NCBI GenBank assembly: GCA_965200925.1
Contig: OZ241738.1
Span: 332,052 to 396,051 of the forward strand
From: Alphaproteobacteria bacterium
Lineage (GTDB): Bacteria; Pseudomonadota; Alphaproteobacteria; UBA828
DNA length: 64,000 bases
Direction of reading: 5' to 3'
The position numbers were made by a program, and so were the translations under genes. The notes beneath the pieces were generated by a model. It searched no databases, was not told the DNA's origin, and was given only the letters and a program-made list of their open reading frames with translations. This document shows, piece after piece, positions 1 through 64,000 of the stretch (positions within the stretch are counted from its first letter, which is position 1; each line of letters starts with the position of its first letter).

Positions 1-3000
1 GCCGTTACCGTGGAGACGCCGCCGTTCTCGCCGACGGTCGCGGGCACGAGCACCAGCGCCACCGTCGGCAGCGTCTCGTCGTCCGTCAGCGTCAGGGTCA
101 CGTTCGACGGATTGGCCACCCCGTTGCCGCCCGCCGCGGTGCCCGAGACCGTCACCGACTTGTTCGGCGAATCCACCGCGTTGCCGTTCGCCCTCACCGT
201 CACCAGGCCCGCGCTGGTGGTCGCGTTGGCCGCGATCGTCAAAGTCTTCGCACTCGACAGGGTGAAGTCCGCCGCCACCGCGCCGGTTCCGGCGGCCGCC
301 CCCACAGTCACCGTCACCGCCGCGCTCGACTTGCCCGTAAGCGTCGCCGTCACTGTCGCCACCCCGCCCGTCTCCGAAATCGATGTGGAAGAGAGCGCCA
401 GCGCAACCGTCGGCAGCGTCTCGTCGTCCGTCAGCGTCAGCGTCACGTCCGGCGAGGCCGCGACCCCGTTGCCACCCGCCGCGGTTCCCGAGACCGTCAC
501 AGACTTGTCCGGCGAATCCACCGCGTTGCCGTTCGCCCTCACCGTCACCAGGCCCGTGCTGATGGTCGCGTTGGCCGCGATCGTCAAAGTCTTCGCACTC
601 GACAGGGTGAAGTCCGCCGCCACCGCGCCGGTTCCGGCGGCCGCCCCCACAGTCACCGTCACCGCCGCGCTCGACTTGCCCGTAAGCGTCGCCGTCACCG
701 TCGCCACCCCGCCCGTCTCCGAAATCGATGTGGAAGAGAGCGCCAGCGCAACCGTCGGCAGCGTCTCGTCGTCCGTCAGCGTCAGCGTCACGTTCGACGG
801 ATTGGCGACCCCGTTGCCACCCGCCGCAGTTCCCGAAACCGTCACCGACTTGTCCGGCGAATCCACCGCGTTGCCGTTCGCCCTCACCGTCACCAGGCCC
901 GCGCTCGTCGTCGAACCCGCCGCGATCGTCAAAGTCTTCGCACTCGACAGGGTGAAGTCCGCCGCCACCGCGCCGGTTCCGGCGGCCGCCCCCACAGTCA
1001 CCGTCACCGCCGCGCTCGACTTGCCCGTAAGCGTCGCCGTCACCGTCGCCACCCCGCCCGTCTCCGTAATCGACGAATCGGAGAGCGCCAGCGCAACCGT
1101 CGGCAAGGCGTCATCGTCCTCCAACGTCAGCGTCACGTCCGGCGGGGCCGCGACCCCGTTGCCGCCCGCCGCGGTTCCCGAGACCGTCACCGACTTGTCC
1201 GGCGAATCCACCGCGTTGCCCACCGCCGTCACCGTCACCAGGCCCGTGCTGGTGGTCGCGTTGGCCGCGATCGTCAAGGTCTTCGCCGCGCTCAGGTCGA
1301 AGTCCGCCGCAACCGCCCCGCTCCCCGCCGCCGCAGCCACCGTCACCGTCACCGCTTCGCTCGACGGACCCGTAAGCGTCGCCGTCACAGTGGAGATGCC
1401 GCCGTTCTCGCCGACGGTCGGGGGCGTAAGCACCAGCGCCACCGTCGGCAAGGCGTCGTCGTCCTCCAGCGTCAGCGTCACGTTCGGCGGGGTCGCGACC
1501 CCGTTGCCGCCCGCCGCGGCGCCCGAAACCGTCACCGACTTGTTCGGCGAATCCACCGCGTTGCCCACCGCCGTCACCGTCACCAGGCCCGCGCTCGTCG
1601 TCGCCCCGGCCGAGATCGTTAGAGTCGTCGCGCTCGACAGATCGAAGTCCGCGGCGACCGCGCCGGTCCCGGCGGCCGCCCCCACCGTCACCGTCACCGC
1701 TGCGCTCGACGCGCCCGAAAGTGTCGCCGTCACCGTTGCAACCCCGCTCGTCTCCGAAATCGACGAGGCAGAGAGCGCCAGCGCAACCGTCGGCAGCGTC
1801 TCGTCGTCTTCCAGCGTCAGCGTCACGTTCGGCGGCGTCGCGACGCCGTTGCCGCCCGCTGCGGTTCCCGTGACCGTCACCGACTTGTTCGGCGAATCCA
1901 CCGTGTTGCCGTTCGCCGTCACCGTCACCAAGCCCGCGCTCTCCGTCGAACCCGCCGCGATCGTCAGAGTCGTCGCCGTGCTCAAGGTGAAGTCGCCCGA
2001 GACCGCGCCGGTCCCCGCGGCGGCCGCCACGGTCACCGTCACCGCTGCGCTCGACGCCCCCGTAAGCGTCGCCGTCACCGTCGCAACCCCGCTCGTCTCC
2101 GAAATCGACGAGGCGGAGAGCGCCAGCGCCACCGTCGGCAAGGCGTCGTCGTCCTCCAGCGTCAGCGTCACGTTCGGCGGGTTCGCCACATTGTTGCCCC
2201 CCGCCGCCGCGCCCGAGACCGTCACCGACTTGTTCGGCGAATCCACCGCGTTCCCGTTCGCCCTCACCGTCACCAAGCCCGTGCTCTCCGTCGAACCCGC
2301 CGCGATGGTCAGAGTCGTCGCCGTGCTCAAGGTGAAGTCGCCCGAGACCGCGCCGGTCCCCGCGGCCGCAGCCACCGTCACCGTCACCGCTTCGCTCGAC
2401 GCACCCGAAAGCGTCGCCGTCACCGTCGAGACGCCGCCCGTCTCCGAAATCGACGAGGCGGAGAGCGCCAGCGCCACCGTCGGCAGCGTCTCGTCGTCTT
2501 CCAGGGTCAGGGTCACGTTCGGCGGATTGGCGACGCCGTTGCCGCCCATCGCGGCGCCCGAGACCGTCACCGACTTGTTCGGCGAATCCACCGTGTTGCC
2601 GTTCGCCGTCACCGTCACCAAGCCCGCGCTCGTCGTCTCCCCCGCCGCGATGGTCAATGTCTTCGCCGTGCTCAAGGCGAAGTCCGCCCCGACCGCGCCA
2701 CTCCCGGCGGCCGCTCCCACCGTCACCGTCACCGCTTCGCTCGACGCACCCGAAAGCGTCGCCGTCACCGTCGAAACCCCGCCCGTCTCCGAAATCGACG
2801 AGGCGGAGAGCGCCAGCGCCACCGTCGGCAAGGCGTCGTCGTCCGTCAGCGTCAACGTCACGTTCGGCGGCGCCGCGACGCCGTTACCGCCCACCGCAGT
2901 TCCCGAGACCGTCACCGACTTGTTCGGCGAATCCACCGTGTTGCCGTTCGCCGTCACCGTCACCAGACCCGCGCTCGTCGTCTCCCCCGCCGCGATGGTC

Positions 3001-6000
3001 AGTGTCTTCGCCGTGCTCAAGGCGAAGTCCGCCCCGACCGCGCCACTCCCGGCGGCCGCCCCCACCGTGATCGTCACCGCCTCGCTCGACTTGCCCGTAA
3101 GCGTCGCCGTCACCGTCGAAACCCCGCCCGTCTCCGAAATCGACGGGTCGGAGAGCGCCAGCGCAACCGTCGGCAAGGCGTCATCGTCCTCCAACGTCAG
3201 CGTCACGTCCGGCGGGGCCGCGACACTGTTGCCGCCCGCCGCGGTTCCCGAGACCGTCACCGACTTGTCCGGCGAATCCACCGCGTTGCCCACCGCCGTC
3301 ACCGTCACCAGGCCCGTGCTGGTGGTCGCGCTGGCCGCGATCGTCAAAGTCTTCGCACTCGACAGGGTGAAGTCCGCCGCCACCGCGCCGGTCCCGGCGG
3401 CCGCAGCCACCGTCACCGTCACCGCTTCGCTCGACGGGCCGGAGAGCGTCGCCGTCACCGTCGAGATACCCCCTGTCTCAGAGATCGACGTGTCGGAGAG
3501 CGCCAGCGCAACCGTCGGCAAGGCGTCGTCGTCCTCCAGCGTCAGCGTCACGTTCGGCGGGGCCGCGACGCCGTTGCCGCCCGCCGCGGTCCCCGAGACC
3601 GTCACCGACTTGTTCGGCGAATCCACCGAGTTGCCCACCGCCGTCACCGTCACCAAGCCCGCGCTCGTCGTCGATCCCGCCGCGATGGTCAGCGTCGTTG
3701 CCGTGCTCAAGGTGAAGTCGCCTGACACCGCCCCGCTCCCGGCGGCCGCCCCCACCGTCACCGTCACCGCGGCGCTCGATGGGCCGGAGAGCATCGCCGT
3801 CACCGTCGCAACCCCGCTCGTCTCCGAAATCGACGAATCGGAGAGCGCCAGCGCAACCGTCGGCAGTGCGTCGTCGTCCGTCAGCGTCAACGTCACGTTC
3901 GGCGGGGCCGCGACCCCGTTGCCGCCCGCCGCCGCGCCCGAGACCGTCACCGATTTGTTCGGTGAATCCACATCGTTGCCGTTCGCCGTCACCGTCACCA
4001 AGCCCGCGCTCGTCGTCGAACCCGCCGCGAAGGTCAGAGTCGTCCCCGTGCTCAGGGCGAAGTCCGCCGCGACCGCGCCGGCTCCGGCGGCCGCTCCCAC
4101 CATCACCGTCACCGCAGCACTCGACGGACCCGTAAGCGTCGCCGTCACCGTCGAAACCCCGCCCGTCTCCGAAATCGACGAATCGGAGAGTGCCAGCGCA
4201 ACCGTCGGCAGCGTCTCGTCGTCTTCCAGCGTCAACGTCACGTTCGGCGGATTCACGACGCCGTTGCCGCCCGCCGACGTCCCCGAGACCGTCACCGACT
4301 TGTTCGGCGAATCCACCGCGTTGCCGTTCGCCGTCACCGTCACCAAGCCCGCGCTCGTCGTCTCCCCGGCCGCGATAGTCAAAGTCTTCACGCTCGACAG
4401 GGTGAAGTCCGCCGCGACCGCGTCGGTCCCCGCGGCCGCCGCCACCGTCACCGTCACCGCAGCGCTCGACGGACCCGTAAGCGTCGCCGTCACCGTCGAA
4501 ACCCCGCCCGTCTCCGAAATCGACGAATCGGAGAGCGCCAGCGCGACCGTCGGCAAGGCGTCATCGTCCTCCAGCGTCAACGTCACGTTCGGCGGCGCCG
4601 CGACGCCGTTACCCCCCGCGACCGTACCCGAGACCGTCACCGACTTGTCCGGCGAATCCACCGAGTTGCCGTTCGCCGTCACCGTCACCAAGCCCGTGCT
4701 GGTGGTCGCGTTGGCCGCGATGGTCAGCGTCTTCGCCGTGCTCAAGGCGAAGTCCGCGCCGACCGCGCCGGTTCCGGCGGCCGCCGCCACCGTCACCGTC
4801 ACCGCAGCGCTCGACGGACCCGAAAGCGTCGCTGTCACCGTCGAAACCCCGCTCGTCTCCGAAATCGACGAATCGGAGAGCGCCAGCGCCACCGTCGGCA
4901 AGGCGTCGTCGTCGGCGATGGTCAGCGTCCGGGCGACCGGCTGCTGCACGCCCTGGTCGTTGACCGCCGTTCCCGAAACCGTCGCCTGCCGGTTCGGCGC
5001 GTCGGTGTCGTCGTCCACCGCCGCCACCGTCACCGTGCCGCTGCTGGTCGTCGCCCCGGCCGCGATGGTCAGCGTGGCCGCACTCGACAGGGTGAAGTCC
5101 GCCGCGACCGCGCCCGTCGACGCTACCGGCGCGACCGACACCGTGATCGTCGTCGCCGCACTCGACACCCGGTTCAGCGTCGCCGTCACCGCCGCCGTGC
5201 TCCCCGTCCCGCTCTCGTCGATGGTCGAAGGCGTCAACACCAGCGTCACCGTCGGCGGACCCTCGTCGTCGCGAATGGTCAGCGTCACGCCCGACGGCGC
5301 CGCCGCCCCGTTGCCGCCCGCCGCCGTTGCCGACACGCGCACCTCGATGTCCGGCTCGTCGGCGGCGTTGTCGTTCGCCGTCACCGTCACCGTGCCCGTG
5401 CTGACGGTGGCCCCGGCCGCGATGGTCAGCTTCGTCGTGCTCGACAGGGCGAAGTCCCCCGACACCGCGCCGGTCGACGCCACCGGAGCGGCCGACACCG
5501 TGAGCGTCACCGCCGCGCTCGACTTGCCCGAGAGCGTCGCCGTCACCGTGGAGACGCCGCCGTTCTCGCCGACGGTCGATGGCATGAGCACCAGCGCCAC
5601 CGTCGGCAAGGTATCGTCGTCCGTCAGCGTCAGCGTCACGTCCGGCGGCACCGCCACCCCGTTGCCGCCCGCCGCGGTTCCCGAGACCGTCACCGACTTG
5701 TTCGGCGAATCCACGTCGTTGCCGTTCGCCGTCACCGTCACCAGGCCCGCGCTCGTCGTCGATCCCGCCGCGATGGTCAGAGTCTTCGCCGTGCTCAAGG
5801 TGAAGTCCGCCGCGACCGCCCCGGCCCCCGCGGCCGCAGCCACCGTCACCGTCACCGCCTCGCTCGATTTGCCCGTAAGCGTCGCCGTCACCGTCGAAAC
5901 TCCGCCCGTCTCCGAAATCGACGCGTCGGAGAGCACCAGCGCAGCCATCGGCAGCGTCTCGTCGTCGGTCAGCGTCAACGTCGCGCCGGTCACCGCCCCC

Positions 6001-9000
6001 GTCCCTTGGCCGTTGGCCAGCACCGCCGTCACTGTCGCGCTGCGCCCCGCGCTCCCCTGGTGGATGCTATCGTCCACCGCCGTGACCAACACCGTGTCCG
6101 AGGCCGCCGTGGTTGACCCCGCCGCAATCGTGATCGTCGCGTCCGTTCCCACCGTGTAGGAACCCGAGACCCCCTGCACCGTCACCGTCGAAGGCTCGCT
6201 CGATGGGTGCGACAAGGTGGCCGTCACCGTCGATACCCCGCCGTTCTCCGAGACCGATGTCGGGTTCAGCGACAGCGTCACCCCCGGCGCCGCGTCGTCG
6301 TCCTCCAGCGTCAGCGTCACGTCCGGCGGGGCCGTGACCCCGTTGCCGCCCGCCGCGGTGCCCGAAATCGTCACCGACTTGTTCGGCGAATCCACCGAGT
6401 TGCCGTTCGCCGTCACCGTCACTTCGCCGACGCTCGTCGTCGCCCCGGCCGCGATGGTCAGAGTCGTCCCCGTGCTCAGGGCGAAGTCCGCCGCGACCGC
6501 CCCGCTCCCGGCGGCCGCCCCCACCGTCACCGTCACCGCGGCGCTTGATGGGCCGGAGAGCGTCGCCGTCACCGTCGAAACCCCGCCCGTCTCCGTAATC
6601 GACGAATCGGAGAGCGCCAGCGCGACCGTCGGCAAGGCGTCGTCGTCCTCCAGCGTCAACGTCACGTTCGGCGGCGCCGCGACGCCGTTACCCCCCGCGA
6701 CCGTACCCGAGACCGTCACCGACTTGTCCGGCGAATCCACCGAGTTGCCGTTCGCCGTCACCGTCACCAAGCCCGTGCTGGTGGTCGCGTTGGCCGCGAT
6801 GGTCAGCGTCTTCGCCGTGCTCAAGGCGAAGTCCGCGCCGACCGCGCCGGTTCCGGCGGCCGCCGCCACCGTCACCGTCACCGCAGCGCTCGACGGACCC
6901 GAAAGCGTCGCCGTCACCGTCGCAACCCCGCTCGTCTCCGAAATCGACGAATCGGAGAGCGCCAGCGCCACCGTCGGCAAGGCGTCGTCGTCGGCGATGG
7001 TCAGCGTCCGGGCGACCGGCGGCTGCACGCCCTGGTCGTTGACCGCCGTTCCCGAAACCGTCGCCTGCCGGTTCGGCGCGTCCGTGTCGTTGTCCACCGC
7101 CGCCACCGTCACCGTGCCGCTGCTGGTCGTCGCGCCCGCCGCGATGGTCAACGTGTTCGCGCTCGACAGCGTGTAGTCGCCCGCCGCCGCCCCGGTCGAG
7201 GCCACCGGCGCGACCGACACCGTGATCGTCGTCGCCGCGCTCGACGCCCGGTTCAGCGTCGCCGTCACCGACGCCGTGCTGCCCGTCCCGCTCTCGTCGA
7301 TGGTCGAAGGCGTCAACGCCAGCGTCACCGTCGGCGGACCCTCGTCGTCGCGGATGGTCAGCGTCACCGCCGACGGCGCCGCCGCCCCGTTGCCCCCCGC
7401 CGCCGTCGCCGACACGCGCACCTCGATGTCCGGCTCGTCGGCGGCGTTGTCCTGCGCCGTCACCGTCACCGTGCCCGTGCTGACGGTGGCCCCGGCCGCG
7501 ATGGTGAGCTTCGTCGTGCTCGACAGCGCGAAGTCCCCCGACACCGCGCCCGTCGACGCCACCGGGGCAGCCGACACCGTGAGCGTCACCGCCGCGCTCG
7601 ACTTGCCCGAGAGCGTCGCCGTCACCGTCGAGACACCGCCGTTCTCGCCGACGGTCGCGGGCGTGAGCACCAGCGCCAGCGTCGGCAAGGCGTCGTCGTC
7701 CGTCAGCGTCAGCGTCACGTTCGACGGATTGGCGACGCCGTTGCCGCCCGCCGCGGTTCCCGAGACCGTCACCGACTTGCTGGGCGAATCGACGTCGTTG
7801 CCGTTCGCCGTCACCGTCACCAAGCCCGCGCTCTCCGTCGACCCGGCCGCGATGGTCAGCGTCGTTGCGCCCGACAGGGTGAAGTCCGCGGCGACCGCGC
7901 CGGTCCCCGCGGCCGCAGCCACCGTCACCGTCACAGCAGCGCTCGACGCACCCGACAACCGCGCCGTCACCGTCGCCACCCCGTTCGTCTCCGCAATCGA
8001 CGACGGCGTGAGCGCCAGCGAAACCGTCGGCAGCGTCTCGTCGTCGGTCAGTGTCAACGTCGCGCCGGTCACCGCCCCCGCCCCCTGGCCGTTGGCCAGC
8101 GCCGCCGTCACTGTCGCGCTGCGCCCCGCGCTCCCCTGGTGGATGCTATCGTCCACCGCCGTGACCAACACCGTGTCCGAGGCCGCCGTGGTTGACCCCG
8201 CCGCAATCGTGATCGTCGCGTCCGTTCCCACCGTGTAGGAACCCGAGACCCCCTGCACCGTCACCGTCGAAGGCTCGCTCGATGGGTGCGACAAGGTGGC
8301 CGTCGCCGTCGACACCCCGCCGTTCTCCGAGACCGATGTCGGGTTCAGCGACAGCGTCACCCCCGGCGCCGCGTCGTCGTCCTCCAGCGTCAGCGTCACG
8401 TCCGGCGGGGCCGCGACCCCGTTGCCGCCCGCCGCGGTGCCCGAAATCGTCACCGACTTGTTCGGCGAATCCACCGCGTTACCGTTCGCCCTCACCGTCA
8501 CTTCGCCGACGCTCGTCGTCGCCCCGGCCGCGATCGTCAGCGTCGTCCCCGACTGCGTGAAGTCCGCCGCCACCGCCCCGCTCCCCGCCGCAGCCGCCAC
8601 GGCCACCGTCACCGCCGCGCTCGACTTGCCCGTAAGCGTCGCCGTCACCGTCGAAACCCCGCCCGTCTCCGAAATCGACGAGTCCGAAAGCATCAGCGCA
8701 ACCGTCGGCAGCGTCTCGTCGTCCTCCAGCGTCAACGTCACGTTCGGCGGATTCGCGACGCCATTGCCGCCCGCCGCGGCGCCCGAGACCGTCACCGACT
8801 TGTTCGGCGAATCCACGGCGTTGCCGTTCGCCCTCACCGTCACTTCGCCTGCGCTCGTCGTCGCCCCGGCCGCGATGGTCAGAGTCGTCCCGGATTGCGT
8901 GAAGTCCGCCGCGACCGCCCCGGCCCCCGCAGCCGCAGCCACCGTCACCGTCACCGCTGCGCTCGACGCACCCGACAGCCGCGCTGTCACCGTGGAGATG

Positions 9001-11660: not shown

Positions 11661-11750
11661 CGCACCGCCGATACCGCCCGACCGCACCCCCAAATCCATC
11701 GATGGCAACCGCCGACAGGGTTTTCAGTGGCCGGTGATCGGTGCTGGCAG

Positions 11751-16543: not shown

Positions 16544-16565
16544 GGGGGGGGGGGGGGGGGGGGGG
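16544..16565. promoter_or_regulatory. Homopolymeric G tract (22 G; poly-C on the coding strand) 24 nt upstream of the autotransporter-2 start codon, a candidate phase-variation switch
   Basis: Seen directly in the sequence. The equivalent tract in copy B (61437-61461) is about 25 G with an adjacent A-to-G change. This length difference fuses an upstream ORF to the gene in copy B. Confidence 0.7.
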
Positions 16566-16854: not shown

Positions 16855-17421
16855 TCAGTTACCTGCCGCTTTCAGCACCCGGGCCTGAGCCTTGCGGGCT
16901 TGCTGCACCATGCTGTCCACCTCCGCGTCGCGTCCTTCGCCGATCATTTCATCGCGTTTCAGCGTGGCGAGGAAGTAAGCGTGGAGAAAGGTCCGCTCAA
17001 TCAAGGATGTGAGGCCGGTGGGCATCGTGGGAGCCTGGGCTCCGGATTCGCTCCCGAAGGTCGTGGGCATTCGGTCGCGGATCAATTCGGCAGCATCGGT
17101 CCGGTCGTCGGAACGGCCGTGAATCGGCTTTCCGGCGTGCCCATCGGGCACGACAGCGGAGATGAAGTCGCGGATTTCGGAGACCTCCTGCTCGCGTCCG
17201 GACAAGATCAGGTCGCGCGCGAGGACCTGCGCGGCGAACAGCGAGGCCCTTGCGACCTGGATCTCTGCCTCGGTGCGCGGCCATTCGCGGCGGTCGAGGG
17301 CCTCCATGGCGAGCTCCACGACGAGCCGGTTCGCCGAAACGTCCCGCTCCCTTGCTGCGTTTTCGATGCGATTCCATTGCCCGGGCGTGACCCGGACGTT
17401 CTTTTGCAGCGTCCGTGCCAT
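16855..17421 (-). CDS. Ribbon-helix-helix (CopG/MobC-like) domain protein, ~188 aa
   Basis: The N-terminus MARTLQKNVRVTPGQWNRIENAARERDVSANRLVVELAMEAL fits an RHH beta-alpha-alpha pattern. The internal Met at 17421 was chosen over the ORF-track start at 17481. The C-terminal two-thirds has no recognisable domain. Confidence 0.45.
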   Translation of the reverse strand: MARTLQKNVRVTPGQWNRIENAARERDVSANRLVVELAMEALDRREWPRTEAEIQVARASLFAAQVLARDLILSGREQEVSEIRDFISAVVPDGHAGKPIHGRSDDRTDAAELIRDRMPTTFGSESGAQAPTMPTGLTSLIERTFLHAYFLATLKRDEMIGEGRDAEVDSMVQQARKAQARVLKAAGN

Positions 17422-22770: not shown

Positions 22771-22953
22771 TCATCCGTCCGCGCCGGTGCCGGGAGGGAA
22801 GCCCCTGAGTTCGCGGACGGCACGGACCGACAGTCCGATCTCGGCCAGCAGCCGGTCGCTGGCGAAGGGGGGCGGGAAGCAGTCGTCGTCGTTGCCGTCG
22901 GCGAGGCCGGTGACGATCCCGGCGGTCGGCGTCTCGAAGAGGTCGTCGAACAT
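22771..22953 (-). CDS. Hypothetical acidic small protein (60 aa)
   Basis: MFDDLFETPTAGIVTGLADGNDDDCF..., with RBS GGAG upstream. It lies at the 3' end of a longer artefact ORF. Confidence 0.3.
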   Translation of the reverse strand: MFDDLFETPTAGIVTGLADGNDDDCFPPPFASDRLLAEIGLSVRAVRELRGFPPGTGADG

Positions 22954-24240: not shown

Positions 24241-24321
24241 GTCCTCCCTGCCGGGGTTGAAGTCCAGGCGAAGGACGCCCGGCCGGCGCGGGGCCGGCGG
24301 GGCGTCCCCGGAGAACGCCGC

Positions 24322-31498: not shown

Positions 31499-31557
31499 CG
31501 TGTGTCCAAAATCAATGATCCACTTGCCGGACGGGCGCCGCGTCACGTCCATGCCGT

Positions 31558-53400: not shown

Positions 53401-56400
53401 CGTGTTCGCGCTCGACAGCGTGTAGTCGCCCGCCGCCGCCCCGGTCGAGGCCACCGGCGCGACCGACACCGTGATCGTCGTCGCCGCGCTCGACGCCCGG
53501 TTCAGCGTCGCCGTCACCGACGCCGTGCTGCCCGTCCCGCTCTCGTCGATGGTCGAAGGCGTCAACGCCAGGGTCACCGTCGGCGGGCCTTCGTCGTCGC
53601 GGATGGTCAGCGTCACGGCCGGCGGCGGCGCCGCCCCGTTGCCGCCCGCCGCCGTCGCCGACACGCGCACCTCGATGTCCGGCTCGTCGTCGGTGTTGTC
53701 GTTCGCCGTCACCGTCACCGCGCCCGCGCTGACGGTGGCCCCGGCCGCGATGGTGAGTGTCGTCGTGCTCGACAGTGCGAAGTCCCCCGCCACCGCGCCC
53801 GTCGACGCCACCGGGGCGGCCGACACCGTGAGCGTCACCGCCGCGCTCGACTTGCCCGAGAGCGTCGCCGTCACCGTCGAGACGCCGCCGTTCTCGCCGA
53901 CGGTCGCCGGCGTGAGCACCAGCGCCAGCGTCGGCAAGGCGTCGTCGTCCGTCAGCGTCAGCGTCGCGTTCGACGGATTCGAGACCCCGTTGCCGCCCGC
54001 CGCGGTTCCCGAGACCGTCACCGACTTGTTCGGCGAATCCACGTCGTTGCCGTTCGCCGTCACCGTCACCAAGCCCGCGCTCTCCGTCGATCCCGCCGCG
54101 ATGGTCAGGGTCGCCGCGCTCGACAGGGTGAAGTCCGCGGCGACCGCCCCGGCCCCCGCGGCCGCAGCCACCGTCACCGTGACCGCCTCGCTCGATTTGC
54201 CCGTAAGCGTCGCCGTCACCGTCGCAATCCCGCCCGTCTCCGTAATCGACGAATCGGAGAGCACCAGCGCAGCCGTCGGCAGCGTCTCGTCGTCCGTCAG
54301 CGTCAACGCCGCTCTCGCCGAAGGAGATATAAGGCTAAAGAGGTTGCCGCCCCCGAACGTCCAGGGCCACTTCCTCCTCCCCGGGTCCCTCGTTAGCCGG
54401 AAAGCATAACGCGCGCCCACCATCACCCGACGGTTGCCGCTGTGGACGTCGTTGTCCACCGCGGCGACGGTCACCGCGCCGGCGCTCACGGTATCCCCCG
54501 CCGCGATGGTCAGGGTGTTGGCCGCGCTCCGGCTGTAGTCGCCCGAATGGGAAGCCAACACCCTGATGGTCGTCGGCACGCTCGACGGGTGCGAGAGCGC
54601 CGCGGTCACCGTCGCCGTGCTGCCCGCGCCGCTTTCGTCGATGGTCGAGGGCGAAAGCGTCAGCTCCACCGTCGGCAAGGCGTCGTCGTCCTCCAGAATC
54701 AGCACCATGAGCCGCGGGTCCGCGACTCCGTTGCCCCCTGCCGCCGCGCCGCGGACCACTATCCGCTTGTGCGACGAATCGACGTCGTTGCCGTTCGCCG
54801 TCACCGTCACTTCGCCAGCGCTCGTCGTCGCCCCGGCCGCTATGGTCAGCGTCGTCCCCGTGCTCAAGGTGAAGTCGCCCGACACCGCCCAGGAGCTGCC
54901 GGCCGTCACCGTCACCGTCACCGTCACCGCAGCGCTCGACTTGCCCGAAAGCGTCGCCGTCACCGTCGCAATCCCGCCGGTCTCCGAAATCGACGAATCG
55001 GAGAGCGCCAGCGTCGCCGTCGGCAGGGCCTCGTCGTCGGCCAAGGTCAAGGTCGCGTTCGCCGGGTCCGCGACCCCGTTGCCGCCCGCCGCCGCGCCGG
55101 AGACCGTCACCCGCTTGTCCGGCGCGTCCACGTCGTTGTCGCTGGCCGTGATCGTCACCGTCCCGGTGCTCGTCGTGGCGTTCGCCGCGATGGTCAGCGT
55201 CGTGCCCCCGCTCAGGCCGAAGTCGCCTGCCACCGCGCCCGACGCCGCCACCGCCGCCGCCGCGACCGTGACCGTCACCGCCTCGCTCGACGGGCCGCCC
55301 AGCGCCGCGCTCACCGTCGCCACCCCGCCGTTCTCGGCGATCGACGACGACGACAGCACCAGCGAGACCGTGGGCGGGCCGTCGTCGTCGCGCAGCGTCA
55401 GGGTCGCGTCCGGCGGGTCCGCCGCCCCGAGCGTGCCCGACGCCGAACCCTTCACCGTCACCTGCTTGTCCGGCGAATCCATGTTGTTCGGTTCCGCGGT
55501 CACCGTCACCAGGCCCGCACTCGTCGTCTGCCCGGCAGCGACGGTCAGCGTGTTCGCCGTGCTCAGGGTGAAATCGCCGTCCACCGCGCCCGTGGACGCC
55601 GTCGCCGACACCGCGATCGTCACCGCCCCCGCCGAGGGGTGGCTCAGGGTCGCGGTCACCGTCGCCACGCCGCCCGACTCCGAGATCGACGCCGGGGCAA
55701 GGGCGAGCGCCGAACTCGGCCGCGAGTCCTCGTCCGCGATGGTCAGGGTCAGGTCCACCGGCGCCGCCACCAGCCCGTAACCGCCGTCCACCGCCCCGCT
55801 CACCGTCACAAACTTGCCCGACGAGTCGATGGCGTCGTCCGTCGCGGTGATCGTCACCGTGCCCGCGCTCGCCGCCTGCCCGGCAGCGATGGTCAGCGTC
55901 CGCGCCGCGCTCAGGGCGAAGCCGCCGTCGGCGGCCAGCGCCGCGTAGGTCAAGGCCGCCGACACCGTCACCGTGATCGCCTCGCCGGAGGGAGGGCCGC
56001 TCAGGCGCGCCGTCACCGTCGTCGCGTTGCCCGCCCCGCTCTCCCGGATCGTGTACGGGTACGCTATGTACGGGTCCGACAGCATCAGCACCAGGGTCGG
56101 CGTCGAGTCGTCGTCGGTGATCGTCCCCACCCCGGTCGCCGCGCTCCCGAGCACCGCCCCGGAGGGGTTGGAGAGGGCGATGCGGACCGTCTCGTCGGGC
56201 TCGTCCAGGCTGTCGACGGTCACCGTCACCTCGACGGTCTTGCTGGTCTCGGTAGCGGAGAAGGTCAGCGTGCCCCCGGAGAACGCCGTGTAGTCGGCGC
56301 CGGAGGCCGCCGTGCCCGGGTCCGCGGCCGCCGCCCAGTCCACCGTCACCTGCCGGCCCGGCGCCCGGTTCAGGGCCACCACGAAGGGCAGCTTCGGCAC

Positions 56401-56550: not shown

Positions 56551-56640
56551 CGCACCGCCGATACCGCCCGACCGCACCCCCAAATCCATCGATGGCAACC
56601 GCCGACAGGGTTTTCAGTGGCCGGTGATCGGTGCTGGCAA

Positions 56641-59600
56641 TCAGAAGCGCACCTTGATGGTCACCCCGCCGCCGTAGTCGCGCGCCCCCGTCGCCCAGCG
56701 CGCCGCCCCTTGCAGCGCGTAGCGGCCGCCGTCCCATTCGACCGCGCCGCCGGCCTCGACGAGCACCCGCGTCGCCTCCACCTTCGACGACAGACCCACG
56801 TCCGACACCTTCACCGCAGTCTCCCGCGAGAACGCGCGCTCGACGTCGACCGAGCCGAACAACCGGCTCCCGCCCTCCGACGCTTCCACCCTCACACCCG
56901 CGCGGCCCGTCGCGGCCCGGCCCTTGTCCAGCGACACGCGGGCTTCCACCGCGTCCGTGAAGTCGTCCATCCCCACCCGCGAATACGAGAGCCGCGCCCG
57001 CGGCGTCGCCGTCAGCGCCCCCAGCGGACCCGAACCCAGCGCCACGCGGCGGCCCGCCTCCACGCCAACCGCATGGCCGAAGGCGCCGACGTCCCGCTTC
57101 AGCGACCCGCGCTGCCCGGACTCCAGGGCCACGTCGTACCACGTCGCCGATACCCCGCCGTCCACGTACACGCCGTCGGACAACCGCCACGACACCGACG
57201 CCCCGACGCCGTTCCCCGCAACATCGATCCCGCCGTCGTTCCCCGACACCTCCGCCGAGGCGCGGCGGTGATGCGCCGACAGGCTGGCCACGCCTGCCTC
57301 CAGCGGAAAGTCCACGCCCGTCTCCACCCCGTAGCGGCGCTGCGTCCACGCCAGACGGCCTCCGGACGTCGACGTCGACCGCTCCGTCTCGCGCGAACCG
57401 CCCGACGTCTCGATCCGCGCCCACACCCCGTTCGGCGAGCGCGGCGCCGCCATCCGGTCATGGAACCCCGACGTCCCGTTCAGACCCAGAAGCACCGACG
57501 GCAGCGCCTCGTACACCCGCACGCGGGGCGCGTACTCTCTCACCAACCTCCCGTCGTGGCCGATTCCCACGTCGAAAGGCCCCAACGGCACCGAGCGCGC
57601 CGAACCGGGCGCCCCGAGGTCGTCGATCCTGCGCCCGTCCGCAAAGACGTACCGCACTTCCGGCGGCGCGCCGTCGGCGTCCCGCATCGTGCCTTGAATC
57701 CGGTTGAGGAGCTGCTCCGCCGTCTCCCCCGGGGCTTGCCGGATCGACACCACCAGTTCGCCGCTGGCGCTGCGGATGGCCTCGCCATCGACGCCCGTCA
57801 CGCGGCCGGCCTCGCCGATCGCCACCGTGCCGCCGCGATCCAGCAGCACGCGACCGGCCGTGCCCGCCACCCGCACCGTGCTCTCGGTCGCTACCCGAAC
57901 CGTCCCGGTGACTGCACCACCCGGGGCCACCGACACCGCGTGCTCGCCGCTGCCCAGGGCCAGGATGTCGCCCATGACCACGCCCGCCACCGTCACGGTC
58001 AGGTCCCCGGTCTCGCTGCGGATGCCGACTCCCTCCACGCCCGTCACGCGACCGGAAGCGTCCACCGTCACCGTGCCGCCCCGGTCCAGATGCACCCGGC
58101 CGACGACGCCCGCCACCCGCACCGTGCTCGCCGCCAGACGAACCGTTCCCGTCACGCTGCCGCCGCGCGCCACCGTCACCATGTGATCGCCGTCGCCAAG
58201 GCCCAGGACGTCGCCCGTCACCATGCCGGCCACGGTCACGTCCAGGTCGCCCGCTTCGCTGCGCAACGCTTCGGCCGCGCCTTCGACGCCCGTGAGCCTG
58301 CCGGTCGCGGTCACCGTTACCGTGGCCCCGCCGCTGTAGAGCAGCCGCCCGATGCGGCCCGCCACCGTCAGCGGGCCGATCGGGTCATATGCCGTGCCCG
58401 TGACGACGCCGCCTTCCGGAACCGAAAGCGTCAGCGTGCCGCCGCTCGGTGCGCGCAGGTCGCCCGCCACCCGTCCGGCCACGGTCACGTCCAGATTGCC
58501 CGCTTCGCTGCGCAGCGCCTCGGTCCTGCCGTCGACATCGACGCCGGTGAGCGCGCCCGTCGCGGCCACCGTCACCGTGGCGCCGTCGGTGTAGAGCAGC
58601 CGCCCGATGCTGCCTGCCACCGTCAGCGGCCCGGCGGGGTCGCGGACCGTCCCCGTGACGACGCCGCCTTCCGGAACCGAAAGCGTCAGCGCGCCGCCAT
58701 CGACGCGGACATCGCCCCTGACCGTCCCCGAAACGGTGGCCGTCAGGTCGCCGCCGCCGTCGGCGAGGACGCCCATGCCCGACGTCGCGCCGATCTCGCC
58801 CGTCGCGCCGACGGTGAGCCGCCCGCCGCCGGCCAGATGGACGCCCGCGCCGGTTCCGCCCGTCACCGCACCGTTCACGGTCACGCTCTGGGCGTGGAGG
58901 TTCCCCTCCCCGGCGCCCGCGCCGCGGACGTAGATGCCGTTCGCGCCGCCCGTGACGCGCGCGCCCTCGGCAACCGTCACCGTGATGGCGCCGTTGCCGT
59001 CATGCGGAACGGCGTAGAGCGCCTCCACGCCGTTGCCCTCGGTGGTGATGGCGCCTGCGGTCACGTCCACCTGGATATCGCCGGCGTTGTAGCTCGCCGC
59101 GCGCTGCCGGACCCCGTCCTTCCAGTCGTCCGTGTAGGTGGCGCCGGAAAGGGCGGCCAGCGCCGCCTCCAGTCCGCTGCCCGTCAGGACGGCTTCCAGC
59201 ACCGTGCGCTCGGCCGCCGAGAGCTTCTCCTGCTCCGCCAGCGCCGCCTGCTGCTGCTCCGTTCGAGCCGCCGCGGCGATGGCGAGGATCGCCGGGTCGC
59301 GGTCGCCCTGGCGGATGAAGGTCGCCATCCCGGTGTGGGACTGCACCACGGCGCGGATGCCGGCGCGGGAAAGGCCCAGGATCTCCGAGGCCGCGATCTC
59401 CCCCGCCCGGTTCGCCGTCGCCGCCCTGGCGGCGTCGCCGGGCGACTCGGCGATGCGCTTCCTCTGGAGATTCCGCGCCTCCGCCTTCCAGTCGGCGTCG
59501 TAAGCGGCGGGGAGCGCCGCAAGCGCCGTATCCAGCGCGTCCGAATCCCCCGACGTAATCGCCGAGAGGACGGCCTGCTCCACCGCCGACAGCGTCTCGT

Positions 59601-61413
59601 CGGCGCCCGCGATCCGGCCCCGGATGAAGGCCTCCGTCACCGAGGCGCCGACCGTGACCGTTCCGCTCGAGGCGACGTGGATCATCGGCTCGGCCCGGGC
59701 GGCATCGTCCGCCGTCTGCGCACCGTCGCCGAAGGTGTGGCCGCTCGACCGCTCGGCCCAGGCGAGAACGCCGGCCTCCCGTGCCTCGACCTTGCCCCCG
59801 GGCGTGACCACGATGCGCCCCGCCGCGCTCGCGTCGTTCGTCGCCCGCGCATCCATTCCGATGGCGAACGGCGCCGCGATCGCCGTCCCCGCGCCCGTCG
59901 TTATCCCGACGGAGCCGAGGCCCGCCTGAAGCCCGAGTATCCCCGCCGTGTTCAGCCCCTCCACGGTGATGGCGCGGTCGCCCGCCGCATCGATGGCGAT
60001 CGCCGCCGTACTCGCGGCGTTGCCTATATTGCCGACGACGCCGTAGGTCTCGTCGCCGGCCGTGGAGATGGCGGCGTCGTCCAGATCGACGTCGAGGCTG
60101 CCCGTGCCGGCGTGCCGGGCGTAGATGCCGTAGCTCGCGTAGCCCGTCGTGGTGACGGTGACGCCACCCGCGTAGATCGAGAGCGCCGCCTCGCTGGCGG
60201 CGTTGAGGTCGGCGGCGATGACGCCGTAGGAGTCGTCGCCCGTCGTCACGATGCGGCCGCCCGTCACGTCGATGGCGATCGCCCCCCCGCCGGTACCGGT
60301 ATAGCCGAAGACGCCGTAGGAGCCGTCGCCCGTCGTGGAGATGGCGACGCCTTCCAGGTCGATGTCGGTTCCGCCCGCGCCGCGGTTGTCGGCGAGCACG
60401 GCGTGGGCGGAATCGTTCGCCGTAGTGACCGATCCGCCTCGCAGATCAAAGGCGATTCCGCCCGCGCCTTCTTGCCTGGCATAGACGCCGTTGGCCCGCG
60501 CTGTCGTGGAGATGGTGACGGCCGTCGAGTAGATGGAGAGCGACGCGGTGCTCGCGGAGCCCGCGACATGGCCGAAGATGCCTTGTGCGCCGCGACCCGC
60601 TGTCGAGAGGGAGCCGCGCGTCACCGAGACGGTGAGCGCCTCGCCTACGGCGTTGCTGATCAGGCCGTAGACGCCGTGGGAGTTCGAGCCCTCCGTGGTG
60701 ACGTCGACGTCCGTCACGTCGATGGAGACCGCCCCCCCGCTGTTTCCTATGATGGCGCCGCCGATGCCGAAGGCGCCGTCGCCCACCGTCGATATGGAGC
60801 CGCTTTTCACATCGACGTCGACTCCGGTCCCGCCCGCACCCGTGTGCCGGCCGTAGACGCCATGGCCGCTGCCCTTCGTGGAGACGGCCACGTTCGCCAA
60901 ATCGATGTCGATTCCGCCCGTGCCCTGATGCTGGGCCCAGACGCCTGCGCCCCCCGCGGTCGCGTCCGTCGCGGAGACCGTGCCGGCCGTGACGGAGACG
61001 GTGATCGCTGCCGCGTTCGCGGAGTTCTCGATCAGACCAACAATGCCGTGATTGGCCGACGTGACGTCGACACCCTCTTTCAGAACGATGGATACACCGC
61101 CGGCGCCCCTTTGGTAGGCGAAGACGCCGTAGCCGCCCTGGCCCGTTGCGGAGAGGGCGCCGCCCGCCACTTCGACGTCGATTCCGCCCGTGCCCGTATG
61201 ATGGGCGTAGACTGCGTATTCGTTGGCGACCGCCGTCGCGATGGCCGGGTTCGTGAGGTCGATGTCGATGACGGTCGCATCACCTTGCTGGCAGACGACC
61301 CGGTCGTTCACCCCCGGCGTGTTGCTGCACACGGCGGCGGCCTGCGCCTCCGCCGCGCCGAGCAGGAAGGCCAGCCCGAAGAGAAGCGCGCCAATTCGCG
61401 CCCGGGTGTTCAT
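56641..61413 (-). CDS. Type Va autotransporter with glycine-rich beta-helical passenger (1590 aa), copy B
   Basis: Homologous to 11751..16520, with MNTRARIGALLF at the ATG at 61413. The listed 1702-aa ORF is an N-terminal fusion artefact caused by the different poly-G length. Confidence 0.75.
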   Translation of the reverse strand: MNTRARIGALLFGLAFLLGAAEAQAAAVCSNTPGVNDRVVCQQGDATVIDIDLTNPAIATAVANEYAVYAHHTGTGGIDVEVAGGALSATGQGGYGVFAYQRGAGGVSIVLKEGVDVTSANHGIVGLIENSANAAAITVSVTAGTVSATDATAGGAGVWAQHQGTGGIDIDLANVAVSTKGSGHGVYGRHTGAGGTGVDVDVKSGSISTVGDGAFGIGGAIIGNSGGAVSIDVTDVDVTTEGSNSHGVYGLISNAVGEALTVSVTRGSLSTAGRGAQGIFGHVAGSASTASLSIYSTAVTISTTARANGVYARQEGAGGIAFDLRGGSVTTANDSAHAVLADNRGAGGTDIDLEGVAISTTGDGSYGVFGYTGTGGGAIAIDVTGGRIVTTGDDSYGVIAADLNAASEAALSIYAGGVTVTTTGYASYGIYARHAGTGSLDVDLDDAAISTAGDETYGVVGNIGNAASTAAIAIDAAGDRAITVEGLNTAGILGLQAGLGSVGITTGAGTAIAAPFAIGMDARATNDASAAGRIVVTPGGKVEAREAGVLAWAERSSGHTFGDGAQTADDAARAEPMIHVASSGTVTVGASVTEAFIRGRIAGADETLSAVEQAVLSAITSGDSDALDTALAALPAAYDADWKAEARNLQRKRIAESPGDAARAATANRAGEIAASEILGLSRAGIRAVVQSHTGMATFIRQGDRDPAILAIAAAARTEQQQAALAEQEKLSAAERTVLEAVLTGSGLEAALAALSGATYTDDWKDGVRQRAASYNAGDIQVDVTAGAITTEGNGVEALYAVPHDGNGAITVTVAEGARVTGGANGIYVRGAGAGEGNLHAQSVTVNGAVTGGTGAGVHLAGGGRLTVGATGEIGATSGMGVLADGGGDLTATVSGTVRGDVRVDGGALTLSVPEGGVVTGTVRDPAGPLTVAGSIGRLLYTDGATVTVAATGALTGVDVDGRTEALRSEAGNLDVTVAGRVAGDLRAPSGGTLTLSVPEGGVVTGTAYDPIGPLTVAGRIGRLLYSGGATVTVTATGRLTGVEGAAEALRSEAGDLDVTVAGMVTGDVLGLGDGDHMVTVARGGSVTGTVRLAASTVRVAGVVGRVHLDRGGTVTVDASGRVTGVEGVGIRSETGDLTVTVAGVVMGDILALGSGEHAVSVAPGGAVTGTVRVATESTVRVAGTAGRVLLDRGGTVAIGEAGRVTGVDGEAIRSASGELVVSIRQAPGETAEQLLNRIQGTMRDADGAPPEVRYVFADGRRIDDLGAPGSARSVPLGPFDVGIGHDGRLVREYAPRVRVYEALPSVLLGLNGTSGFHDRMAAPRSPNGVWARIETSGGSRETERSTSTSGGRLAWTQRRYGVETGVDFPLEAGVASLSAHHRRASAEVSGNDGGIDVAGNGVGASVSWRLSDGVYVDGGVSATWYDVALESGQRGSLKRDVGAFGHAVGVEAGRRVALGSGPLGALTATPRARLSYSRVGMDDFTDAVEARVSLDKGRAATGRAGVRVEASEGGSRLFGSVDVERAFSRETAVKVSDVGLSSKVEATRVLVEAGGAVEWDGGRYALQGAARWATGARDYGGGVTIKVRF

Positions 61414-61436
61414 GAGGCGTTCCCTGGCGGCCGTGC

Positions 61437-61461
61437 GGGGGGGGGGGGGGGGGGGGGGGAG
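61437..61461. promoter_or_regulatory. Homopolymeric G tract (~25 G) upstream of autotransporter-2 copy B
   Basis: Seen in the sequence. It is longer than the 22-G tract in copy A. Confidence 0.7.
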
Positions 61462-61748
61462 ATTCAAGTGGGTACAGACCGGACAGACGGATGACAGGTC
61501 ATGGGATTTGGTCGGATGTTTCACGGCCTCTGCTCCCGAATGAAGACGCTCGTCGCGGCAGCGGGCGCTCCCGAATGAGATTACAAGGCACAGTCTACTA
61601 TTCTCGTCCGAAGATAACAGGCCGGCCGCTCGGCAGTCGCATGACACGTAAGTGCGCGCCCCTACCATAAGGGATGCATCGCCCGCCGCCCGTTGCCGGA
61701 GAGCGTCACGGACGCGATTGATATGACTTTGGTCAGGAAACGACATCA

Positions 61749-62315
61749 TCAGTTACCTGCCGCTTTCAGCACCCGGGCCTGAGCCTTGCGGGCTTGCTGC
61801 ACCATGCTGTCCACCTCCGCGTCGCGTCCTTCGCCGATCATTTCATCGCGTTTCAGCGTGGCGAGGAAGTAAGCGTGGAGAAAGGTCCGCTCAATCAAGG
61901 ATGTGAGGCCGGTGGGCATCGTGGGAGCCTGGGCTCCGGATTCGCTCCCGAAGGTCGCGGGCATTCGGTCGCGGATCAATTCGGCAGCACCGGTCCGGTC
62001 GTCGGAACGGCCGTGAATCGGCTTTCCGGTGTGCCCATCGGGCACGACAGCGGAGATGAAGTCGCGGATTTCGGAGACCTCCTGCTCGCGTCCGGACAAG
62101 ATCAGGTCGCGCGCGAGGACCTGCGCGGCGAACAGCGAGGCCCTTGCGACCTGGATCTCTGCCTCGGTGCGAGGCCATTCCCGTCGGTCGAGGGCCTCCA
62201 TGGCGAGCTCGACGACGAGCCGGTTCGCCGAAACGTCCCGCTCCTTTGCTGCGTTTTCGATGCGGTTCCATTGCCCGGGCGTGACCCGGATGTTCTTTTG
62301 CAGCGTCCGTGCCAT
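61749..62315 (-). CDS. Ribbon-helix-helix domain protein, copy B
   Basis: Homologous to 16855..17421 (MARTLQKNIRVTPGQWNRIENAAKERDVSANRLVVELAMEAL). Confidence 0.45.
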   Translation of the reverse strand: MARTLQKNIRVTPGQWNRIENAAKERDVSANRLVVELAMEALDRREWPRTEAEIQVARASLFAAQVLARDLILSGREQEVSEIRDFISAVVPDGHTGKPIHGRSDDRTGAAELIRDRMPATFGSESGAQAPTMPTGLTSLIERTFLHAYFLATLKRDEMIGEGRDAEVDSMVQQARKAQARVLKAAGN

Positions 62316-63048: not shown

Positions 63049-63972
63049 TCAGGCTGCGACGCGGTGGACGGGGATGCCGATCTGTCGCGCCTTGTCGATG
63101 AGGTTCTCGGTGATGCCGGAGCCGGGGAAGGCGACGAGGCCCTTGGGCAGGAGGTTGAGGAGGTCGTCGTTGCGTCGGAAGGGTGCGGCGCGTCCGTGTC
63201 TGTCCCAGTCGGGCTTGCAGACGATCTGGTGGACTTCGTTGCGCTCGGCCCAGGAGGCGGCGATCCTCTCGGCACCGGGTCCGCCGCCGTGGAGGAGGAT
63301 CATGTCGGCGTGCCGGTCCTTGACGCGATCGAGGACGGCCCAGATGGCGTCGGCGTCCTCGGCTTCCTTGCCGCCGGCGACGGCGACGAGGGTTCCGTCG
63401 GGGAGGTGTGCGCGTGTCTCGCGGTCCTTGCGGGCGCGGATGAAGTCGCGTGCGTCGATGGCGGCGGATGTGAGCCTGCCGGTGTGGCTGGTGTGAGAGC
63501 CGTGTCGGGGCCGCCACTGCTTGCCGGTCTCGGCGGTGTAGGCCTCGGCGGCGAAGTCGCGGAGCTTCTCGAAGGCGTCGCGCCGGTCGCCGAGGTTGTG
63601 TGCGCGCTCGGTGAGGCGTTCGAGCTGCCAGGCCTTGACCTCGGTTCCGTCCTGTGCGCGTCCGAGTTCTCGCATCTCGGGAGCGATGCCGTCGATGGCG
63701 CGGTCGAGGCGCTGGACCTGAGCGTGGAAGGTGTTGACGAAGCCCCAGAGGAGGCACTCGCGCTCGTCGGCGAGCTGGTAGCCGTCGGGTGCGATGTCCT
63801 GGGCGAGGACGTGGAAGGCCTGCTGGGTGCCTGCGATGGCCCCGTCCTTGTCCCAGACGGGCCGGTTGTCGGGTTCGTCGGGATCGGGTGTTGCGCCGTA
63901 GAGCCTGGCGGCGTCGCAGGCTGCGGCGGTGGGGGAGGCGGCGTATCCGGTATCGGTGCCGATGGTGTTCAT
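63049..63972 (-). CDS. SLOG-family (DUF2493-like) protein, copy B
   Basis: Homologous to 18027..18950, with the same AGGAGATCGTC-ATG start context. Confidence 0.55.
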   Translation of the reverse strand: MNTIGTDTGYAASPTAAACDAARLYGATPDPDEPDNRPVWDKDGAIAGTQQAFHVLAQDIAPDGYQLADERECLLWGFVNTFHAQVQRLDRAIDGIAPEMRELGRAQDGTEVKAWQLERLTERAHNLGDRRDAFEKLRDFAAEAYTAETGKQWRPRHGSHTSHTGRLTSAAIDARDFIRARKDRETRAHLPDGTLVAVAGGKEAEDADAIWAVLDRVKDRHADMILLHGGGPGAERIAASWAERNEVHQIVCKPDWDRHGRAAPFRRNDDLLNLLPKGLVAFPGSGITENLIDKARQIGIPVHRVAA

Positions 63973-64000
63973 GACGATCTCCTGATGTTGGTGTTGCATC

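Follow-up and report, generated by a model that had tools for sequence, protein, structure and literature searches.

The locus described here is a 64-kb stretch of contig OZ241738.1 (positions 332,052-396,051) from an uncultured alphaproteobacterium. This whole stretch is termed the window, and positions within it are used throughout; its G+C content is 70%. Two diverged copies of one gene set, copy 1 on the left and copy 2 on the right, lie in direct orientation, each encoding a giant Calx-beta-repeat protein, an autotransporter of about 1,590 amino acids (aa), an RHH protein and a SLOG protein. Between them are the small genes of an island backbone, a P4-type tyrosine integrase, the 3' end of a tRNA-Met gene as the core of an attachment (att) site, and a stretch of defence and toxin-antitoxin genes (table 1). 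The locus is probably an array of related genomic islands, a reading subject to the reservations set out below.

Table 1. Features of the 64-kb window, in window coordinates (ORF, open reading frame; GC3, third-position G+C content).
Feature	Position	Strand	Basis or remark
Giant autotransporter-like adhesin, copy 1	3..11723	-	N-terminal 3,906 codons; gene crosses left window edge; GC3 0.92; frame uninterrupted
Autotransporter AT1 (1,589 aa)	11751..16520	-	Pfam Autotransporter beta-domain, 74.7 bits; TIGR01414, 98 bits; N-terminal signal-peptide-like sequence
Poly-C tract, copy 1	16544..16565	-	22 nt on coding strand; 24 nt upstream of AT1 ATG
RHH protein, copy 1 (188 aa)	16855..17421	-	Weak NikA-like Pfam match, E = 0.006, below cutoff; exact protein on public record
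SLOG (YAcAr) protein, copy 1	18027..18950	-	Pfam PF10686, E = 2e-24
SLOG-cluster4-like protein	19293-19859	-	Pfam
74-aa ORF	20025-20249	-	Same gene model on sister contigs
DUF7146+Toprim primase	20363-21349	-	Pfam; matches TraI C-terminal region, TIGR02760
AlkB-like dioxygenase	21481-22041	-	Pfam
SSB	22197-22664	-	Pfam
60-aa ORF, zinc-ribbon repeat protein, 106-aa ORF, HTH_3 regulator	22771..25210	minus except regulator	Regulator divergent
HTH_3 regulator	24893-25210	+	Divergent from neighbours
Phd/YefM antitoxin and PIN toxin pair	26069..26724	+	Pfam
P4-type tyrosine integrase (418 aa)	26989..28245	-	Arm-DNA-bind_3, E = 2e-18; Phage_integrase, E = 1e-11
att core: 3' 45 nt of tRNA-Met(CAT)	28436..28480	+	Anticodon loop to CCA, without 5' half; divergent from integrase
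Terminator-like hairpin	28487-28519	+	3' of att core
Two TGGCAAAC direct repeats, 11-bp period	28550-28568	+	Resemble arm-type sites; 3' of hairpin
PDC-M38 candidate defence pair	28975..30677	-	DUF3226 (28975-29622) and AAA_21 ATPase (29622-30677); Pfam; PADLOC PDC-M38A/B
Type IIG (MmeI-like) restriction-methylase C-terminal fragment, pseudogene	30674..31560	-	Pfam MmeI_TRD, MmeI_C; PADLOC REase_MTase_IIG, 770-1038 of 1136
Extra C-terminal fragment of 406-aa-type integrase	31562-31785		89.8% repeat with the 32749-33342 piece
RelB/ParE toxin-antitoxin pair	31923..32490	+	Pfam
Second tyrosine integrase (406-aa type), pseudogene	32749..33342	+	Pfam Phage_integrase on fragments
AbiE system	33349..35048	-	AbiEi 34248-35048 intact; AbiEii in three frames (34255-34022, 34067-33615, 33618-33349); Pfam, PADLOC
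N-terminal fragment of a different AbiEii gene	35175..35465	-	Pfam AbiEii; directly past giant2 stop codon
Giant autotransporter-like adhesin, copy 2 (giant2)	35485..56598	-	ORF 7,037 aa; likely start ATG at 56550; GC3 0.91
Autotransporter AT2 (1,590 aa from ATG at 61413)	56641..61524	-	Pfam Autotransporter, 78.6 bits; public record 1,627 aa from GTG at 61524
Poly-C tract, copy 2	61437..61459	-	23 nt
RHH protein, copy 2	61749..62315	-	Public protein record
SLOG (YAcAr) protein, copy 2	63049..63972	-	Identical to P0048; 307-aa type

A divergent direct repeat

Aligning the window with itself reveals a collinear direct repeat whose period is about 44.9 kb. The stretch 1-18,978 is seen again between about 44.9 and 64.0 kb; 8256-17964 match 53116-62859, and 17957-18978 are 99.2% identical to 62979-64000. 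No long inverted repeat was found in the same comparison. Global alignment of 11724-18978 with 56599-64000, the non-array part in which the autotransporter, RHH and SLOG genes lie, puts their identity at 98.72% and shows five indels (15, 3, 1, 1 and 127 nt). Inside the 345-bp tandem array of the giant gene, identity falls to about 90% and the number of units differs between the copies. Because of this difference in repeat number the array register is ambiguous, and the 44.87-kb offset is one of several possible; the best BLAST offset for 1-8064 is 45,904, not 44,870. The 127-nt segment, at about 62855-62981, has a TGGCG direct repeat on its flanks. It is polymorphic, being present in copy 2, L001/L082 and L083, and absent from copy 1 and L092 (L numbers denote loci of relatives; contigs of another metagenome assembly are called sister contigs).

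The two copies are truly diverged and under purifying selection. Synonymous differences (pS) between them amount to 1.3-3.5%, and the ratio of nonsynonymous to synonymous differences (pN/pS) is 0.31 for the autotransporter, 0.33 for the RHH and 0.43 for the SLOG gene; over the first 771 codons of the giant gene it is 0.75. Ratios of 0.3-0.4 reflect purifying selection and make an artefact of assembly or circular overlap unlikely. The original prediction, made from the sequence letters without database searches, had described a direct repeat of about 44.9 kb with divergent copies and had argued against a trivial circular-overlap artefact, and both points hold. So do the differing numbers of adhesin repeats, the unequal poly-G lengths (22 against 23 G, the complement of the poly-C tracts in table 1) and the estimate that adhesin fills about 57% of the unit: the two autotransporter genes take up about 58% of the period. 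An indel placed at 62862-62990 with a length of 129 nt exists, but with the size and position given above, and the coding strand had to be corrected, since GC3 analysis assigns all repeated genes to the minus strand. Every unit had also been credited with the full gene set. The adhesin, autotransporter, RHH and SLOG genes do occur twice, but the repeat is visible over 19 kb only, and the primase, alkB, ssb, vapBC, integrase, att and defence islet occur once each, at 19-35.4 kb.

Integrase and attachment site

The catalytic motifs of the 418-aa integrase (R / H-x-x-R / H / Y) are visible in its translation, and an identical protein is encoded on another contig with different flanks. The att core beside it is single-copy in the window. 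ARAGORN and Rfam detected no tRNA gene and no Rfam family in the window, and no further att-like sequence lies left of giant2, which leaves 28436-28480 as the sole candidate left end for unit 2. The sister contigs are 97-99% identical to the window over 17354-28480 and then pass into unrelated DNA exactly at 28480 or 28519, with three different flanks. In L001/L082 the switch is at 28480, with type III Cmr and type I restriction-modification genes beyond; in L083/L084 it is at 28519, after the hairpin, with GmrSD beyond. Such presence/absence polymorphism, judged from the contig comparisons, has its breakpoint at att.

The geometry of a complete element is provided by L006, in which an 87%-identical integrase lies within an 8-kb element between an intact tRNA-Met, presumably resembling the initiator tRNA of E. 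coli, and a 3' fragment on the integrase-proximal side. These boundaries give the order tRNA, cargo, integrase, fragment. Fragment and hairpin adjoin the integrase in all 12 of the 12 relatives compared, and the T-arm varies from genome to genome. Taken together, the switch points of the sister contigs, the L006 element and the twelve relatives argue that the att fragment is a functional boundary. The original prediction of an att junction at 28.4-28.5 kb, belonging to an integrase-borne island, is borne out by the loss of homology at 28480 or 28519; of the tRNA site that it proposed, the window retains one 45-nt tRNA-Met 3' fragment and no tRNA gene.

The hairpin and the TGGCAAAC repeats also occur together in L006, L018 and L077. 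In L006 the intact tRNA and the fragment are each followed by this layout. The direct repeats past the hairpin were considered as proof of a tandem junction (P-core-P') and rejected, because the single element of L006 has them at both ends. Paired direct repeats stand about 60-70 nt past the tRNA fragment, with equivalents in L083, L003, L014, L002, L009, L018 and L077. They fall into three sequence types (TGGCAAAC, GGGAATC and CGTAAGC) that do not track the phylogeny of the adjacent integrase, and may be arm-type or accessory-protein binding sites.

The giant adhesin and its companion autotransporter

The giant protein consists largely of about 48 units of about 115 aa that match Calx-beta and LapA-domain models, preceded by a Sec-type signal peptide at the N-terminus. 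The 345-bp period extends over 42.9 copies at 39435-54305 in copy 2 and over at least 27.1 copies at 48-9423 in copy 1. Unit-by-unit protein alignment shows collinear N-termini, in which the first four units are 94-100% identical between copies. A three-unit block is found in copy 2 alone, and the array interiors are shuffled. The version encoded in L083 has 7,378 aa. Plus-strand ORFs in the adhesin region, such as 35899-47181, were rejected as antisense frames; they are interrupted by stops, whereas the minus frame is open for 21 kb.

The C-terminal 370 aa are modelled by AlphaFold2 as a beta-barrel (pLDDT 74.8), whose best match in the PDB is the autotransporter beta-domain of BrkA (E = 4e-6). 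The giant protein is predicted on this basis to end in an outer-membrane beta-barrel. The Pfam Autotransporter profile (PF03797) scores 20.3 bits on it, under the cutoff of 26, and homologues at 50-80% identity carry PF03797. The modelled barrel (35485-36600) has about 18 strands, against 12 in classical autotransporters, and barrels of TonB-dependent receptors and LptD score nearly as high against it as BrkA. A PDB sequence search with the C-terminus returned no meaningful match, and a scan of JGI metagenome contigs with the same region found nothing. At about 7,000 aa and with more than 43 Calx-beta-like repeats, the protein ranks with the largest autotransporter-like proteins predicted.

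AT1 and AT2 are clear autotransporters of type Va, as judged from their PF03797 and TIGR01414 matches and signal-peptide-like N-termini. The poly-C tract in front of each, and of the L083 version, stands 24 nt from the autotransporter ATG and directly follows a TTGAAT hexamer; its length in L083 (13830-13843) is 14 nt. The extra base in copy 2 opens the upstream GTG frame that yields the 1,627-aa product. The tract looks like a candidate for phase variation by slipped-strand mispairing; the 1-nt difference in length between the copies could be a read error.

The region between the copies

The roughly 7 kb from 28.5 to 35.5 kb form a mosaic of separately acquired pieces, with an inverted island remnant among them. 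The unit of the original prediction is thus not a clean element, and its defence/TA islet is a collection of such pieces. The cassette at 28748-30917, which holds the PDC-M38 pair, is found in another sample beside the core genes maoC-ribF-ileS-lspA (L099, 1-2155), at 95.6% identity. The L099 cassette includes part of the type IIG fragment, and about 600 nt at that junction are AT-rich. L099 was considered as an empty site for copy 1 and rejected, as homology ends at 28748 and no tRNA is present. The type IIG fragment in the window is the C-terminal third of the gene.

The block at 32778-35180, with AbiEi, AbiEii and the 406-aa integrase, is intact in L097 and L098, where the integrase stands beside the same tRNA-Met fragment and hairpin. 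In L097 the intact integrase gene (11724-13210) is convergent with AbiE. The block is thus a different tRNA-Met island that has decayed in the window, and at least two integrase lineages use this att, since the 406-aa type adjoins the same fragment. AbiE is no longer an intact system here: AbiEii is split, and the intact AbiEii of relatives has 307 aa. The second AbiEii fragment, just past the giant2 stop codon, shares 91% nucleotide identity over 245 nt with the intact AbiEii of L082. This match suggests that the adhesin cassette replaced the stretch from relaxase to AbiEii of an L082-like backbone, and by the same comparison unit 2 continues past the giant gene.

Backbone genes and their ancestry

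The gene models between 19293 and 22664 are the same as on the sister contigs. Farther towards the integrase lie smaller and partly degraded genes. The zinc-ribbon repeat gene (about 23229-24265, minus strand) encodes five CxxC...CxxC units; it specifies 334 aa in L001, whereas the window version has a frameshift at a run of G and is either a pseudogene or the product of a homopolymer error. An 83-codon ORF at 25363-25614 (minus strand), uncalled on the sister contigs, has good GC3 and two hydrophobic segments and may encode a small membrane protein. An overlapping ORF fragment at 25548-25748 (minus strand) shows a transposase-type helix-turn-helix (HTH_29/HTH_28, just under the cutoff) and an 'SRRPH' motif, and the surrounding stretch is partly absent from L001. 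It is probably the relic of an insertion sequence lying between the HTH regulator and the Phd/PIN pair. A look-up of phd led to an unrelated chromosomal Phd/PIN locus, which was set aside.

Profile matches revealed no relaxase, type IV secretion system (T4SS), replication initiator or phage structural gene in any ORF of the window, in keeping with the original prediction that relaxase, T4SS and phage structural genes are absent. The features that define an integrative and conjugative element (ICE) or an integrative and mobilizable element (IME) are accordingly missing from the window: there is no relaxase or T4SS match, and no oriT was identified. Traces of such a past are seen in the family. 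In L082, out-of-frame pieces at 13000-13800, 3' of a truncated RHH gene, resemble the helicase of conjugative relaxases (AAA_30, E = 1.6e-13); a further C-terminal piece of this relic was recognized by eye only. The helicase relic and the TraI match of the primase point to descent of the backbone from a conjugative or mobilizable element. The RHH protein is possibly a relaxosome accessory protein, to judge by its weak profile match. The island is best described as a decayed ICE/IME derivative.

Relatives and further copies

Among relatives, the backbone from integrase to SLOG is conserved and the cargo past it is variable. Both window copies and L083 carry RHH, autotransporter and giant-protein genes, and L083 is 99.5% identical to copy 1 in the stretch where copies 1 and 2 share 98.7%. 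L082 carries the relaxase-type helicase relic (AAA_30) followed by AbiE genes, with no adhesins; L085 carries DUF4326 and an S8 peptidase. In L092 (ctg390003, 1-13967) a second backbone is inverted relative to the first, the two lying head to head across att, GmrSD and RelE/HTH. This second backbone encodes a 333-aa SLOG protein, DUF4326 (replacing the 74-aa and SLOG4 genes), an RHH protein and the start of another autotransporter. It is without an integrase, and GmrSD and RelE/HTH occupy the place where one would be expected.

The source genome holds more copies than the window displays. Exact-sequence look-ups in the public protein collection assign to the source contig three SLOG variants (SLOG1, SLOG2 and a 333-aa type), as well as three forms of the 59/60-aa backbone protein and two of the 106-aa protein. 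A second AbiEii pseudogene on the same contig has the same 77-aa frameshift ORF, without the second frameshift. These variants indicate that the source genome has three or more backbones and another AbiE copy, and support units that would extend beyond the part visible in the window. The shared AbiEii frameshift implies that the common ancestor of the units was a composite in which decay had already set in.

Relatives were found in metagenome-assembled genomes (MAGs) of uncultured Alphaproteobacteria, Rhodospirillales and Binatia. One is named 'Spongia_Bin9', a name that suggests a sponge-associated origin. In 11 of 80 loci, a relative of the integrase is found no more than 10 kb from a giant-adhesin homologue. 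One Binatia MAG (L045-L050, L055, CBDBFB01; L057 = OZ241976.1) encodes six or more copies of the integrase, mostly 97-99.9% identical, which share an abrupt boundary about 215 nt ahead of the gene. Mosaic segments follow; among them are a stretch of about 2.6 kb, seen in one orientation or the other, and adhesin-like genes that converge on the integrase.

Probable origin of the repeat

The explanation judged the likeliest, with a little more in its favour than against it, is accretion: related genomic islands would have entered one after another by site-specific integration at a tRNA-fMet att site and subsequently decayed. The family backbone of about 11 kb comprises the P4-type integrase, Phd/PIN, the HTH regulator, small ORFs, SSB, AlkB, the Toprim primase, two SLOG genes and RHH, with variable cargo next to it. 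Integration would recombine a 45-nt copy of the tRNA 3' end, after which an intact tRNA is followed by cargo, backbone, integrase and tRNA 3' fragment. A pair of islands with shared cargo, an autotransporter of about 1,590 aa followed by a Calx-beta-repeat barrel protein of about 7,000 aa, would then stand as direct repeats, the integrase and fragment (28.4 kb) that end the left island on its right side abutting the cargo-distal arm of the right island, which is the layout expected of accretion. Since then the junction would have gained and lost defence and toxin-antitoxin cassettes and come to hold the inverted remnant of a tRNA-Met island. Of this account, the repeat, the att junction, the integration geometry of the family and the multiplicity of backbones in the genome are established by the data. 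It further supposes that copy 2 would still have an integrase and att of its own, and that the copies would owe their existence to integration, not duplication. Serial integration is favoured because the shared junction is the sole att left of giant2, because flanks switch at the core in sister genomes, and because copy 1 is nearer to a foreign contig than to copy 2.

Several observations weigh against accretion. The second integrase, the second att and any intact tRNA-Met lie outside the window. The 229-nt link from the hairpin to the PDC-M38 cassette (28520-28748) was found in no other assembly, and the AbiE/406-aa integrase remnant has the opposite orientation to the att at 28.4 kb. By gene content, the 7 kb between the copies are not a clean element arm, given that the PDC-M38 cassette stands beside core genes elsewhere. 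The common AbiEii lesion fits duplication as well as re-integration, and ctg390003, as its gene order indicates, shows that arrays also form or change by rearrangement.

Tandem duplication in situ of some 45 kb of composite sequence, by unequal homologous recombination with later divergence and no second integration, is the leading alternative and considerably less probable. It would account for the second AbiEii pseudogene with its 77-aa frameshift ORF, the copied unit having already held decayed passengers, for a mosaic inter-copy region with an inverted remnant, and for the very high SLOG identity of 99.2%. It is at odds with the finding that copy 1 shares 99.5% identity with a contig of a different assembly and 98.7% with copy 2 over the same stretch, and with the coexistence of several diverged element lineages whose flanks switch exactly at the att core, which points to active site-specific exchange. 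A different origin for copy 2, as a rearranged, integrase-less backbone plus cargo of the ctg390003 kind, would make the locus a product of recombination or inversion among island copies and not an ordered array. The inverted second backbone of ctg390003, with GmrSD and RelE/HTH at the integrase position, the inverted 406-aa integrase/AbiE remnant in the window and the presence of at least three backbones in the source genome all suit this idea. It is nevertheless unlikely: the window copies are in direct orientation, the SLOG protein of copy 2 is of the 307-aa type that is accompanied by an integrase in the window and in L083, and the three variants of the 59/60-aa protein suggest that each SLOG copy brings more backbone with it. 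An assembly artefact, in which the assembler would have strung together either strain variants of a single locus or a circular element, is highly improbable. An array of more than 40 copies of 345 bp is hard to assemble, homopolymer-length differences could be read errors, and the 229-nt link is unmatched in other assemblies. Against this, substitutions make up most of the differences, and their pN/pS of 0.3-0.4 is not the pattern of random error; unit architecture varies between the copies, as does the 127-nt indel, which is polymorphic among sister contigs too; the junction has genuine att-flank motifs, hairpin and TGGCAAAC repeats, as in L006, L018 and L077; and 7 kb of unique sequence between the copies would be unexpected of a concatemer.

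Significance and comparison with known systems

The island pairs giant cargo with a hypervariable homopolymer upstream and occurs with at least three backbone copies per genome, and integrases of the same family adjoin similar adhesin genes in other uncultured lineages. Calx-beta proteins are reported to be enriched in sponge symbionts (PMC11706023), and Calx-beta domains build the sponge aggregation factor (PMC5400394). A wider proposal, speculative and more likely to fail than to hold as a whole, is that tRNA-fMet islands across several phyla of uncultured, probably sponge-associated bacteria distribute, duplicate and diversify giant Calx-beta surface proteins. They would constitute a mobile adhesin system that recombines between 345-bp arrays, is switched by poly-C tracts and perhaps engages the Calx-beta aggregation factors of the host. 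If the inference of the host is correct, the locus offers a concrete, testable route by which symbionts acquire and vary host-contact proteins.

The surface proteins combine features of two known classes. LapA-type adhesins likewise contain dozens of Ig-like Calx-beta/LapA-domain repeats. The match of the giant protein is confined to its LapA-domain and Calx-beta repeats, and the RTX and type 1 secretion features of that class were not found in it. With type Va autotransporters it shares an N-terminal signal peptide and a predicted C-terminal barrel, the latter of about 18 strands in the model and with a sub-cutoff Pfam score. Passengers of type Va autotransporters are usually beta-helical and not built of Ig-like repeats.

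The element itself resembles the tRNA-associated islands with P4-type integrases, such as the Enterobacteria pathogenicity islands that carry autotransporter adhesins. Common features are a tyrosine integrase with an arm-binding N-domain, integration at a tRNA 3' end with duplication of the end, adhesin and toxin-antitoxin cargo, and gradual decay. Here, in contrast, the integrase occupies the end remote from the intact tRNA and diverges from the 3' fragment, insertion is directed to an initiator-type tRNA-Met, the genes carried are much larger (about 7,000 aa) and the host is an uncultured alphaproteobacterium. In the tycheposons of Prochlorococcus, neighbouring elements are separated by partial tRNAs alone and fragmented integrases accumulate (bioRxiv 10.1101/2020.12.28.424599). 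The window locus is similar in its tRNA-targeting integrase elements, separation by a partial tRNA, accumulating integrase fragments and defence cargo, and primase-type gene. This likeness is one of architecture: the backbone of the present island appears to have conjugative roots (RHH, SSB, TraI-like primase and the relic relaxase of L082) and not satellite-like, and, unlike in tycheposons, no helicase or excisionase was identified in the window element.

Accretion of ICEs, IMEs and cis-mobilizable elements yields tandem related elements with a common internal att, some members of which are without conjugation or recombination genes. The present locus agrees in its related elements and internal att, its tandem status being deduced from one junction, and differs in having no relaxase, coupling protein or T4SS. 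The probable mechanism is ordinary, namely tRNA-targeted integration, accretion and decay, and the locus represents a known kind of system with new cargo.

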